From an uncultured Candidatus Saccharibacteria bacterium (GTDB taxonomy: Bacteria; Patescibacteriota; Minisyncoccia; Phycocordibacterales; DSPV01), in assembly GCA_964574355.1 (NCBI GenBank), contig CAZNMD010000005.1, positions 1 to 51,360 on the forward strand: a DNA stretch of 51,360 nucleotides, read 5' to 3'. Position numbers and translations under genes: made by a program. Of this stretch, positions 10,697-20,905 are shown piece by piece; the stretch's first letter is position 1; each line of letters opens with the position of its first letter. The notes under the pieces are model-generated. The model saw only the letters and a program-made list of their open reading frames with translations, made no database searches and was not told the origin of the DNA.

Positions 10697-11563
10697 TTAC
10701 GAAAGATTATTAAATAGTTTTAACTTAGAAATCACAATGTCTCGCACCACATCACGAGCCGGAGCTAAATACTTATACGGTGAAACTTCATCCGGTTTTG
10801 CGGCCAACGCCCCTTCCAAACCTTTCCTAAAAGCAACCCTGATTTCAGTATTAATATGAACAATGGAAATACCCGCCTCAATCGATTTTTTAAAATCATC
10901 AGCCGAGTTTCCGGATCCACCATGAAGAACGAGTGGAATGCCCGCGGCAGCACGAACAGCAATAACTGTTTCAATACTAAGCGCCGGATCAACTCCGCCT
11001 GTTAACATTCCATGGAAATTTCCAACCGCCGGAGCTAATAAATCAACACCAGTCTCTTCGACAAATCGTTTTGCATCTTCTGCTTTTGTGAGACCAGCCT
11101 TCAAATCAACTCCCTCTGGAATTGCGTCGAGTACTTTGCTTGATTGGCCAATATAGCCAAGCTCGCCTTCAACCAACACATCACGACCACTTCCTTTGGC
11201 ATACAAAACGACTTCTTTTGTTTTCGCAATATTTTCTTCAAGCGATAATTTTGCTCCATCAAAAATAACCGAATCAAACCCAGCATCAATAGCCTCTTTC
11301 ACTCGTTCGACTGAATAAGTATGATCAGCATTTAGAAAAATAGGGTACTGATCTCGTTCGCGAATGGTTTTTACAACCGCAGCAATTTCGGCGACTCCGG
11401 TAAAATCCCGTTCACCTTCAGAAACTCCAACAATGACCGGAAGATTCAAAGATTTTGCCGCATCATAAATCGCGTGAACAACTTCTAGATTTGATGTATT
11501 AAAATGACCAATTGCAACTTTTCCAATTGCAGCCTGTGTCACAACTTCGCGTAATGTTTGCAT
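10697..11563 (-). CDS. fba: class II fructose-bisphosphate aldolase
   Basis: NADH, VEGELG, AVGNFHG, LVLHGGSG and HINTE. Start MQTLRE at 11563, with TATACT 6 nt upstream. Confidence 0.92.
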   Translation of the reverse strand: MQTLREVVTQAAIGKVAIGHFNTSNLEVVHAIYDAAKSLNLPVIVGVSEGERDFTGVAEIAAVVKTIRERDQYPIFLNADHTYSVERVKEAIDAGFDSVIFDGAKLSLEENIAKTKEVVLYAKGSGRDVLVEGELGYIGQSSKVLDAIPEGVDLKAGLTKAEDAKRFVEETGVDLLAPAVGNFHGMLTGGVDPALSIETVIAVRAAAGIPLVLHGGSGNSADDFKKSIEAGISIVHINTEIRVAFRKGLEGALAAKPDEVSPYKYLAPARDVVRDIVISKLKLFNNLS

Positions 11564-11596
11564 ACAAAAAGTATACCATCTAACTACGGGCAATAT

Positions 11597-11636
11597 AAAA
11601 AAATAGTCCCCCGAGAACCGCTTGGTTCTCGGGGGA
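11597..11636 (-). terminator. strong intrinsic terminator of the ncRNA unit
   Basis: TCCCCCGAGAACC-AAGC-GGTTCTCGGGGGA 13-bp stem, then CTA and a T7 tract on the minus strand. Confidence 0.85.
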
Positions 11637-12097
11637 TTCAACAACCCTTTTGGGGTCGCTAATAGAATGGTTTCATGTCTCCTTTCGTTTTCTGGAGGTT
11701 TTCCGTCATTCAAAGGGAACGCGACAACCTACACTACGTGAAGGGCATGCTTCCTTCCTTTCGCCTTTCGGGCGAATTGGGATTCGTGGGAGTGAGACCA
11801 AAATGCGTCAGTGCATATATGGGCTTGCTTCCCGTTGTCTTGCCTGAGGCCGACGCCGTGTCAGAGACGATGATACTGGGCGCCGCGGCCGGGGACGAGG
11901 ACGAGAACTGCGCTATTGTTTTCGTTTTTACTGAAACGATTCGGCGGACTGTTCATAGGCGCGATACTCGCTTTCTGGCCCATTTTTTTGGCCGGAAGGA
12001 ACGTTAATGTTGATGAACTACTTAGGCTCCCATCAGGGAGGCTAAGGGGCTAGCGACGTAGGCAATCTTTACGACCGTCTCTCGTACTAGGTATCCT
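11597..12097 (-). ncRNA. unknown large structured RNA (~500 nt)
   Basis: GC-richer interval with its own promoter and terminator, many hairpins and 5'/3' closing helices; no credible long ORF. Confidence 0.65.
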
Positions 12098-12102
12098 CCA
12101 GT

Positions 12103-12130
12103 ACTATAGCATATATTAAAATACTGTCAA
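12103..12130 (-). promoter_or_regulatory. sigma70-type promoter
   Basis: TTGACA-N16-TATAGT with a TG extended -10. Confidence 0.8.
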
Positions 12131-12170
12131 CTACTACAGCTTTAAATACTCTAAAAACACTGAAAAATGG

Positions 12171-13166
12171 CTACAAATATGGTTTTAATACCTTAGCCAC
12201 TTCCTTTGCATTATTTGCTTCCATCAACGCCAAGCGCAATTCTTTTGCATCAGGAAAACCATTCACATATGCTTTAAAATGTTTTTTCATCAAAGCAAAA
12301 CTCTTCTTTTTTCCAAGTAATTTGTCGAAAAGTTTTACATGTTCAAGCAAAATTGCCAATTTTTGTTTAACCACTTGTGCAGAACTATTTTCTAATTCGT
12401 GAGAACGAGAGAATAACCATGGTCGGCCAAAAATTGCACGGCCAAGCATAACACCATCTGCTCCGCTCTCTTTTGCGAGTACTCGCGCATGATCACAATC
12501 TTTCGCATCGCCATTCCCAAGAATAAGCGTTTCCGATTTTAATTCATCACGAATTTTTACCGCCTCGCGGACATGTTCCCAGCGTGCCGGTACAAGCGAA
12601 AGCTCTTTAACTGTCCGCGCATGAATCGTAATTGCTGCAACATTTGTTGAAAGCAGAATCGGAAGCCATGTCGCTAATTCATTTTTGTTATATCCAATAC
12701 GAGTTTTTACTGAAACCGGAATTGCTTCTTTCCCTTTTTTCTTCCCAGCTTCAACACCACGCTTCGCGGCTTCAATAACAAGAACTGCTTGCTTTGGGTT
12801 TTTTATCATCGCACCACCGGAACCTTGTTTCATTATCGACTTATCAGGACAACCCATATTAATATCCAACCCATCAAAACCAAGTTCGGCACACAATTTT
12901 GCTGCACCCTCCATCTTTTCTGGATTAGATGAAAAAAGTTGCACCACAATTGGTCGCTCTTTTTTTGAATACCCTAAATCAATTTCTAAGTGTTCCCGAC
13001 CAGGCGACATAAGCCCGTCAGCCGAAACAAACTCGGTCCACATCACATCAGGCTTGCCGTACTTTGCGATGATACGCCGAAACGCAACATCAGTAACATC
13101 AGCCATTGGGGCCAACACCAAAATTGGTTTTTTCTTTTTTAATTTTTCCCAGAATCCCAAAGACAT
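12171..13166 (-). CDS. dus: tRNA-dihydrouridine synthase
   Basis: LAPMADVTD, DINMGCP, VSVKTRIG, IHART, GNGD and GVMLGRA. Confidence 0.95.
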   Translation of the reverse strand: MSLGFWEKLKKKKPILVLAPMADVTDVAFRRIIAKYGKPDVMWTEFVSADGLMSPGREHLEIDLGYSKKERPIVVQLFSSNPEKMEGAAKLCAELGFDGLDINMGCPDKSIMKQGSGGAMIKNPKQAVLVIEAAKRGVEAGKKKGKEAIPVSVKTRIGYNKNELATWLPILLSTNVAAITIHARTVKELSLVPARWEHVREAVKIRDELKSETLILGNGDAKDCDHARVLAKESGADGVMLGRAIFGRPWLFSRSHELENSSAQVVKQKLAILLEHVKLFDKLLGKKKSFALMKKHFKAYVNGFPDAKELRLALMEANNAKEVAKVLKPYL

Positions 13167-20004: not shown

Positions 20005-20008
20005 AAAG

Positions 20009-20036
20009 TTGATTTATTACGGATACGTTATACAAT
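20009..20036 (+). promoter_or_regulatory. promoter of RNA cassette 1
   Basis: TTGATT-N16-TACAAT. Confidence 0.65.
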
Positions 20037-20042
20037 CGCAAT

Positions 20043-20244
20043 TAGAGTGACAGAGCGATTCCTGGAATTAAGTCTCCTGCTCCATTTCGGGACAGCTTCG
20101 ATATCTTCTCGATTTCGGGCTTTAGACCATTTCTAGGTGAACGTTCGAGTGCAATACTTGAATACCGGTTCAATCCGGCGCTACTCTGCCGCACGATGTA
20201 TTATCTTTAGCTTTCTGGCCAAAGATTGCACCGTGCGGTTTTTT
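20043..20244 (+). ncRNA. unknown structured RNA 1 (dprA-topA array)
   Basis: Nested stems, a GCAA-loop hairpin, a CCGG-TTCAAT-CCGG hairpin and a terminal CCGCACG/CGTGCGG stem with T6. Confidence 0.65.
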
Positions 20245-20245
20245 C

Positions 20246-20273
20246 TTGACAAAAAAACCTAAGTATGTATAAT
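20246..20273 (+). promoter_or_regulatory. promoter of RNA cassette 2
   Basis: Consensus TTGACA-N16-TATAAT. Confidence 0.85.
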
Positions 20274-20279
20274 ACTCTC

Positions 20280-20510
20280 CAGAGTCTGCAAAGGAAGCCT
20301 TTGGCTGAAAGAGGTTCGGCGGAGAATCCCCGGCATACGTTTGACCGGTTTTACGTCTACGAAGCAGACAAGGGTCCGTCCTGTGATTCCAGAGATGATC
20401 GCCTTGCCGACAGTGGCAATTCTAAACACTGAGTATCAGACCATTCCGATACGGGTGGGAAGACGTCCCCATAACGACCGGTCGATGCGCCACATCGTCC
20501 GGTTCTTTTT
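20280..20510 (+). ncRNA. unknown structured RNA 2 (dprA-topA array)
   Basis: GTCTGC/GCAGAC closing stem, TTGCC/GGCAA hairpin, terminator GACCGG..CCGGTT plus T5; no ORF on the transcribed strand. Confidence 0.65.
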
Positions 20511-20516
20511 ATTTTA

Positions 20517-20544
20517 TTGACTTCATTTTCAATCCAGTTATGAT
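20517..20544 (+). promoter_or_regulatory. promoter of RNA cassette 3
   Basis: TTGACT-N16-TATGAT. Confidence 0.75.
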
Positions 20545-20550
20545 TCTTCC

Positions 20551-20803
20551 CGGAGGTAACAACCAACACCTGGCGAGGCTCCCTTCGTGAATTGGGGGTG
20601 ATTAGGTTCAAATCCTAAAGTTGGGGTGAGCACTTTATATAGGGAAAGCATAAAACAGGTACTTGAAAGTACATAGGTGGGAGACATCGAACCACGGGCT
20701 TCGGCATGTGGGGAGTCGCAGAATGTAAAACCACCCGCCTTTTTATAGAGTGCAAGCTTGCTCCACTGTCGCATGGATACTCCGGTATTCATGCGACTTT
20801 TTT
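20551..20803 (+). ncRNA. unknown structured RNA 3: tRNA-like domain plus 23S L1-stalk-like domain
   Basis: TTAGG-TTCAAAT-CCTAA T-arm; ATAGGTGGGAGAC...GGAGTC...ACCACCC; terminator GTCGCATGGATAC/GTATTCATGCGAC plus T6. Confidence 0.75.
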
Positions 20804-20905
20804 ATTTTCTTCCTCATACCCTTCATTTGTATCCTTCGTCTTAAAAATCTTTTCCCCAATTTGGCACTTTAAAAAATGCATGCTATTAATTAGCGCGATA
20901 CGTCC

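Follow-up and report, generated by a model that had tools for sequence, protein, structure and literature searches.

A candidate stand-alone non-coding RNA gene between dus and fba in an uncultured Saccharibacteria genome

Background

Several large bacterial non-coding RNAs (ncRNAs), namely OLE, GOLLD, ROOL, raiA and HEARO, have a function that is obscure or was found only recently, and GC-rich long intergenic regions are characteristic of them. Here we analysed a stretch of 51,360 nucleotides from an uncultured Candidatus Saccharibacteria bacterium (contig CAZNMD010000005.1 of assembly GCA_964574355.1), hereafter called the window, and in it an element located at positions 11597 to 12130 on the minus strand, in the spacer between the genes dus and fba. 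A first-pass annotation had proposed this element as a candidate new large ncRNA class. Like the five RNAs named above, the element is several hundred nucleotides long, has a GC content above that of its genome, is non-coding, possesses its own promoter and terminator and is sporadically distributed. It differs from them by the absence of a match in Rfam 15, by the weak fold signal of its body, by its presence in one assembled genome only and by an alignment too shallow for covariation analysis.

The housekeeping RNAs (RNase P RNA, tmRNA, signal recognition particle (SRP) RNA and 6S RNA) are similar to the element in size range, GC enrichment, promoter and terminator signals and presence in RNA libraries. 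The element differs from them in that no SRP or 6S model matches it and in that it is not essential, a sister genome being devoid of it.

Two further kinds of system were considered. According to the accessible part of PMC12045711, TIGR-Tas systems have been reported from bacteria that belong to the candidate phyla radiation (CPR), and in a TIGR array, located next to the gene of a Nop-domain Tas protein, 8-12-nt repeats alternate with 9-nt spacers to make up units of about 36 nt. On that partial description, such an array is, like the element, a non-coding transcript with a rho-independent terminator in a CPR-like genome; the element differs by its lack of repeats and by the lack of a Nop-domain protein in its genome. 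The accessible part of PMC9226505 describes the msr-msd RNA of retrons and the ncRNAs of the DRT2 and DRT9 systems (DRT, defence-associated reverse transcriptase) as structured, highly expressed, accessory and sequence-diverse, and as located beside defence genes; a resemblance of the element to the RNAs of reverse transcriptase systems was considered on this basis.

Screens for structured RNAs make use of GC-rich intergenic regions, the so-called GC-IGR logic (PMC11109978 and PMC8632094, in their accessible parts). In its accessible part, PMC11109978 makes no mention of Patescibacteria or of the CPR. Our literature searches for noncoding, large or intergenic RNAs of Patescibacteria or the CPR returned no named RNA of this kind. 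Few ncRNAs have been described from uncultured ultra-small bacteria.

Results

A putative non-coding transcription unit in the dus-fba spacer

We judge the chances evenly balanced that the element is a stand-alone, expressed, lineage-restricted ncRNA gene of about 490 nt, with a 59-nt hairpin as its proposed functional centre. Its parts, all on the minus strand, are as follows.

12103..12130, minus strand: sigma-70-type promoter TTGACA-16-TATAGT with a TG extended -10 (11/12 matches in the consensus scan)
11980..12096, minus strand: 5' domain, with the hairpin 12046-12021 (pair probability 0.95-1.0), the TTCCTTCC arm (12001-11994) and a 12-mer (12090-12079)
11768..11979, minus strand: central conserved region, 98% identical in a freshwater-metagenome contig, X6 (4 differences in 212 nt)
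11846..11904, minus strand: nearly invariant core, a GC-rich stem of 11890-11879 with 11857-11848 and a 21-nt loop (pair probability 0.90-0.94)
11749..11776, minus strand: variable segment, with the hairpin TTCGCC-CGAAA-GGCGAA (11776-11760) and the GGAAGGAA arm (11758-11751); 11 nt missing and 3 substitutions in another contig, X7
11637..11748, minus strand: 3' conserved region, with a Shine-Dalgarno (SD)-like AAGGAG (11683-11678), a 5-codon mini-frame (11676-11659) that is putative, being read from the sequence, and a 10-bp hairpin (11662-11638; pair probability 0.97)
11597..11636, minus strand: segment containing the intrinsic terminator 11636-11607, with 13 pairs of which 9 are G-C, a loop of 4, T7 and the tail CTATTTTTTT

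The promoter and the 13-bp terminator with T7 had both been pointed out by the first-pass annotation, and both were found again. We scanned the two strands of the whole 778-kb genome for promoter sites with at least 11 of 12 matches; 33 were detected, 9 of them with the TG. Such sites being rare genome-wide, the promoter at 12130-12103 is unlikely to be a chance site. Its position places the predicted transcription start near 12096. No terminator-like site was found by the consensus scan between the dus stop and 11636. The promoter and the terminator are both better than chance. Between them, no minus-strand open reading frame (ORF) exceeds 40 aa, in agreement with the claim that no credible ORF lies there.

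On the minus strand, a spacer of 607 nt separates the end of the dus ORF (12171) from the start of fba (11563). GC content rises to 0.50-0.57 across 11600-12000, compared with 0.31-0.42 on both sides and 0.415 for the genome. We ranked by GC content the 116 gaps of at least 350 nt in the genome that were free of ORFs (ORF threshold of 120 aa), and the dus-fba gap came first with 0.50. The next gaps in the ranking contain a tmRNA (0.49), a tRNA (0.48) and rRNA (0.47). The first rank of the element's gap is the pattern that GC-rich intergenic-region screens exploit.

Comparison with the sister genome and other family loci

Among the 14 fba-bearing loci of the family, dus precedes fba only in the genome of the same genus (G001), where the dus-fba spacer measures about 160 nt. 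The last ~65 nt of that spacer could be aligned to window positions 11630-11564 with a score of 58, while none of 300 shuffles exceeded 34. The aligned stretch corresponds to the loop and the 3' half of the terminator followed by the fba promoter, so that the terminator is ancestral to the dus-fba spacer. What is additional here is a stretch of about 447 nt, promoter included, between the dus stop and the ancestral terminator. This terminator is stronger here than in G001.

A second, weaker promoter was detected by the consensus scan at 11599-11570, immediately upstream of fba, and this proximal promoter is conserved in G001. A stronger terminator together with a conserved promoter of fba's own would fit a need to insulate fba. 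We also observed that the -10 box of this promoter, TATACT, ends about 7 nt 5' of the ATG (window 11561-11599), an arrangement kept in the sister genome; fba appears to be leaderless or almost leaderless.

In the remaining 12 loci of the family, no comparable element was found upstream of fba. In 9 of these 12, the opposite strand carries a long open frame whose end is at most 72 nt from fba, which leaves no room for the element. In other genera, a GC peak located 200-300 nt upstream of fba lies in long open frames and has no tRNA or Rfam match.

Related sequences in public sequencing runs

At least part of the element was detected with a 31-mer index in each of 16 sequencing runs (X1-X16) from 12 studies, 4 of the runs being RNA libraries from 3 studies. 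Four runs (X6-X9), two of them RNA libraries, were compared in detail, as contigs, which show neither strand nor transcript ends. Their short contigs match parts of the element at about 91-98%:

X6, freshwater, DNA: covers 11768-11979, with 4 differences in 212 nt (208/212 identical)
X8, separate study: covers 11830-11979, with the 3 X6 substitutions that fall within this range; past 11979 it has the same letters as X6
X7, biofilm RNA library: covers 11632-11869, with 10 differences, plus 11 nt deleted at 11753 and 1 nt inserted
X9, bioreactor RNA library: covers 11846-11904, with 1 difference in 59 nt (58/59 identical); flanks unlike the window

These relatives form a family with a nearly invariant core, 11846-11904, and with variation in the 5' 120 nt and in the segment 11776-11749. 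X6 and X8 exhibit no difference at all in the core, and X7 differs from the window only once across 11632-11748. The 5' domain is not conserved in the relatives seen: the X6 and X8 contigs cease to match at 11979, beyond which, by eye, they resemble window 12007-12040, with about 27 nt absent including the TTCCTTCC arm. The loose ends of X9 (the 30 nt adjoining the core) retain, also by eye, about two-thirds identity to the window with a 1-nt indel. The indels of the variants are not multiples of three.

Comparison with known RNA families

At gathering score, Rfam 15 has 8 matches in the window, all of them tRNAs and none within 11597-12130. When the threshold was relaxed to E<=10 over 11450-12300, the best match (E = 0.33) reached 19.1 bits, where the gathering score is 70, and covered one hairpin only. 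The comparison with Rfam therefore returned no known family at either threshold. The first-pass annotation had seen no hallmark of tmRNA, RNase P or SRP RNA, and this was borne out: no corresponding model matches the element, and the genome carries its RNase P RNA and its tmRNA elsewhere. ARAGORN detected no tmRNA in the window, the tmRNA gene of the genome being at C2:32198-32582 (113 bits). An RNase P RNA identity was rejected likewise, the gene being at C4:47975-48304 (93.5 bits). The latter score is below the gathering score of 100 for bacterial type A; the RNase P RNA of this genome is divergent.

An SRP RNA was considered because the string GGAAGGAAGCA looked SRP-like, and was dropped: no SRP model matches, neither Ffh nor FtsY was found and the sister genome lacks the element. 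Our own helix-8 pattern for SRP RNA gave no match either. A 6S RNA, in which about 180 nt form a rod-like hairpin with a bubble at its centre, was rejected: RF00013 gave no match, and the minimum free energy (MFE) fold of the element is multi-branched and 2.5 times too long. The TIGR array was set aside because the element contains no tandem or interspaced repeats, merely short two-copy matches, and because no Nop-domain protein (PF01798) is encoded in the genome. The RNA of a retron, a DRT system or a diversity-generating retroelement (DGR) was rejected as well: the neighbouring genes encode Dus (PF01207, 1.2e-60) and a class-II FBA (PF01116, 2.8e-75), no reverse transcriptase is adjacent and there is no second near-copy that could represent a DGR variable repeat.

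Finally, the 5' end of the element contains a 12-mer, CTAGTACGAGAG (12090-12079, minus strand), identical to the sarcin-ricin loop segment of the organism's own 23S rRNA (C11, near 14176). A 23S rRNA fragment was rejected as an explanation, since the identity goes no further, the genome has 4 occurrences of the inner 10-mer and no large-subunit rRNA model matches; the shared 12-mer is probably due to chance.

Proposed transcript and proposed function

We infer from the promoter and terminator signals that the organism transcribes the element. Transcription would start near 12096, from the strong sigma-70 promoter with its extended -10, and the transcript would end at the intrinsic terminator 11636-11607, which pre-existed in the dus-fba spacer. 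The RNA would remain untranslated. As its functional centre we propose the almost invariant GC-rich hairpin of 59 nt (11904-11846), with its 21-nt loop, and the conserved 3' third. Most likely a protein or another nucleic acid would bind specifically to the hairpin, and the RNA would act in trans within a ribonucleoprotein. Variation would be tolerated in the 5' 120 nt and in the segment 11776-11749. A 778-kb genome would probably not retain, to no purpose, an additional 450 nt of non-coding DNA that carries a near-consensus promoter. In the 2 RNA-library runs examined, contigs of the element were present and contigs of the flanking genes were not, though such contigs are no proof of transcription, as DNA may be present; this qualification is the first of the points that weigh against a functional ncRNA gene.

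The others concern distribution and fold. The element is absent from the same-genus genome G001, which makes it dispensable and accessory. BLAST searches retrieved nothing real from 60 relatives (one 35-nt match, on the terminator hairpin); from 400 genomes of the phylum they gave no more than a scatter of 17-39-nt matches (E >= 0.0025 per genome), and from 400 genomes of the order one 29-nt match (in G713). The latter match was rejected, as it coincides with the ribosome-binding region of an ORF that is unrelated, and the similarity goes no further. A covariance model built from a single sequence (R1, 11979-11837) detected only itself in 151 genomes including its own. Exact 20- to 23-mers of the core gave chance matches only in GTDB genomes, JGI metagenome contigs and IMG/VR, the 7 loci recovered (L057-L063) having unrelated flanks, and the phage and plasmid collections gave no match. 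The comparison with flanking genes, which favours a functional element, is insecure as well: pieces of fba and dus in the X6 run (records 1, 3 and 4) exhibit 21/166, 10/63 and 6/46 differences, i.e. 84-87% identity, but the X6 contigs possibly come from different strains, so the element cannot be taken as firmly more conserved than its flanks.

As for the fold, the z-score of the whole 504-nt unit is -4.55 when the minus strand is folded and -5.27 when the plus strand is. The body taken alone (12096-11664), without the two 3' hairpins, drops to -1.85 on the minus strand, 3 of 100 shuffles folding equally well, and to -2.28 on the plus strand; most of the signal of the whole unit thus comes from the terminator and the 10-bp hairpin that precedes it. 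One perfect long-range 8-mer complement was observed where 300 dinucleotide shuffles gave a mean of 1.35. When the 10 substitutions of the variants were placed on the MFE fold, 5 were unpaired, 1 changed C-G to U-G, 4 broke pairs (at 11907, 11776, 11824 and 11838) and none was compensatory. Natural variation gives the predicted fold no support. The core stem is invariant in the partial variants, and variation hence neither supports nor contradicts it.

These results separate what can be retained of the structure proposed by the first-pass annotation from what cannot. The complementary segments, including the inverted repeat I3, are all present; the fold of the body and the long-range pairings are no better than chance. 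Local hairpins are predicted with pair probabilities of 0.9-1.0 at 12046-12021, 11890-11848, 11776-11760 and 11662-11638, the first three of which had been listed among the internal hairpins. Another hairpin of that list, GTTCAT/ATGAAC, and the two helices said to pair the ends of the element exist as segments and are unused by the MFE fold. The description as highly structured is not supported for a body whose z-score is only -1.85. The two proposed pseudoknot or long-range pairings are not supported either, such pairings occurring at chance frequency, the GGAAGGAA arm being deleted in one variant and the region of the TTCCTTCC arm not being retained in two others. The proposal of a new large ncRNA was a fair lead, its ornate fold and pseudoknots being unsupported. 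As regards a class, the element behaves as a separate non-coding unit and matches no known family; since it is missing both from the sister genome and from all assembled collections searched, and is known from fragments and a single assembled genome, it does not allow a class to be shown. It is possible, although we would rather doubt it, that it represents an undescribed accessory RNA class of about 350-490 nt from ultra-small (CPR-like) bacteria of engineered and fresh waters, built on the 59-nt hairpin, sufficiently abundant to be assembled from metatranscriptomes and serving as the RNA subunit of a novel ribonucleoprotein. If full-length variants confirm the invariant core, the element would bring a new RNA to family databases and a handle on a novel RNA-protein system. 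At present it is a low-copy candidate, and its value is that of a lead.

Alternative explanations

An unlikely, but not negligible, explanation is that the element was inserted and is either non-functional or selfish: a piece of foreign DNA of about 447 nt, richer in GC, would have entered the dus-fba spacer and would happen to carry a promoter, and the relatives would reflect recent spread and not selection. The absence of the element from the sister genome and of anything comparable upstream of fba in the family's 12 remaining loci, the GC content well above the genome average, the lack of homologues in assembled genomes and a predicted fold unsupported by variation are all compatible with it. 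The traces that an insertion might have left were not detected: no terminal repeats or target-site duplication could be found, and a mobile element with such a duplication was rejected, since the only candidate, a 16-nt direct repeat (12/16) between the dus stop and 11658-11673 (D2), is at the shuffle mean, the alignment of the dus 3' end with the 3' part of the element scoring 16 against 15.4 for shuffles. There is also no second copy of the element in its own genome (BLAST) and no phage or plasmid match. Moreover, a core with 58 of 59 identical positions beside diverged flanks is not expected from neutral decay, and the promoter is near-consensus.

The position of the element directly upstream of fba, on the same strand, could instead point to a cis-regulatory leader or attenuator, whose transcripts from the 12130 promoter would stop at the terminator unless a signal permitted read-through into fba. 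The SD-like site and the mini-frame upstream of two hairpins would participate: AAGGAG is followed by an ATG and 5 codons that end at the foot of the 10-bp hairpin, then by the terminator, and in the mini-frame X7 has a lone substitution, a synonymous one (CCA to CCG). We hold this to be improbable, because fba has its own promoter, conserved in a sister genome without the element; because the terminator stem is a perfect GC-rich one of 13 bp with T7, for which no antiterminator pairing was found by eye; and because no riboswitch or leader family matches, the spacing from SD to ATG is just 2 nt and 470 nt is very long for a leader. Quite improbable, too, is a long 3' untranslated region of dus. 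This gene lacks its own terminator before 11636, so that transcripts continuing past dus would include the element, and the shared terminator is ancestral; a near-consensus promoter nevertheless lies 40 nt past the dus stop, and the contigs of the element in RNA libraries came without dus contigs. Finally, a small-protein gene appears very improbable. The candidates would be a 110-aa ORF on the plus strand (11675-12007), which spans most of the GC-rich core, and the 40-aa ORF on the minus strand (11983-11861). No Pfam match was obtained for the 4 ORFs tested, and among 5.8 billion clusters the 110-aa ORF has no homologue except a 62-aa protein from the window's own contig. For the plus strand, the scan gave no promoter and no SD was seen by eye. 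The 11-nt deletion and the 1-nt insertion of X7 fall inside the 110-aa frame, and the 4 substitutions of X6 and X8 are, by our count, all at codon positions one or two. As to the 40-aa ORF, its ATG lies in the part where X6 and X8 do not match the window.

Additional observations

The results on the SRP extend beyond the element. Neither the small nor the large SRP RNA was found in the genome, and the small one was found in 0 of 15 family genomes. The models SRP_SPB, SRP54 and ffh had no match in the genome, the controls being positive in 14/14 genomes. Over 26 genomes (25 relatives and this one), 4 gave weak matches restricted to the P-loop and no more, and SRP_SPB was found in 0 of 81 genomes of the phylum. 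A DTAGR-type motif is absent from frames of at least 150 aa, in an assembly that holds just 230 N. Either the lineage has lost the SRP pathway, or its Ffh and FtsY have diverged, or our first-look filter reached its limit of sensitivity; our literature searches found no statement on a missing SRP pathway.

One search of the genome for RVT_1 had a sole match, a 481-aa protein at G000:C2:30394-31839 (locus L069 835-2280, minus strand). Its best PADLOC match is RT_UG32 (1.3e-76), and 360 nt separate it from the tmRNA gene C2:32198-32582, downstream of which it is located. The spacer between the tmRNA gene and this UG32-like reverse transcriptase is GC-rich (about 0.55).

Elsewhere in the window, two further near-consensus promoters are present on the plus strand, at 20246 (12/12) and 23401 (11/12). 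The first precedes a 901-nt ORF-free gap (20005-20905, GC 0.45) that has no Rfam match at gathering score.

Within the element, a 12-nt motif is present in two copies, 11743-11754 and 11821-11832, separated by 78 nt and reading GGAAGCATGCCC and GGAAGCAAGCCC in the RNA. The copy at 11821-11832 sits, by eye, in a block that is also retained by the diverged variant X9.
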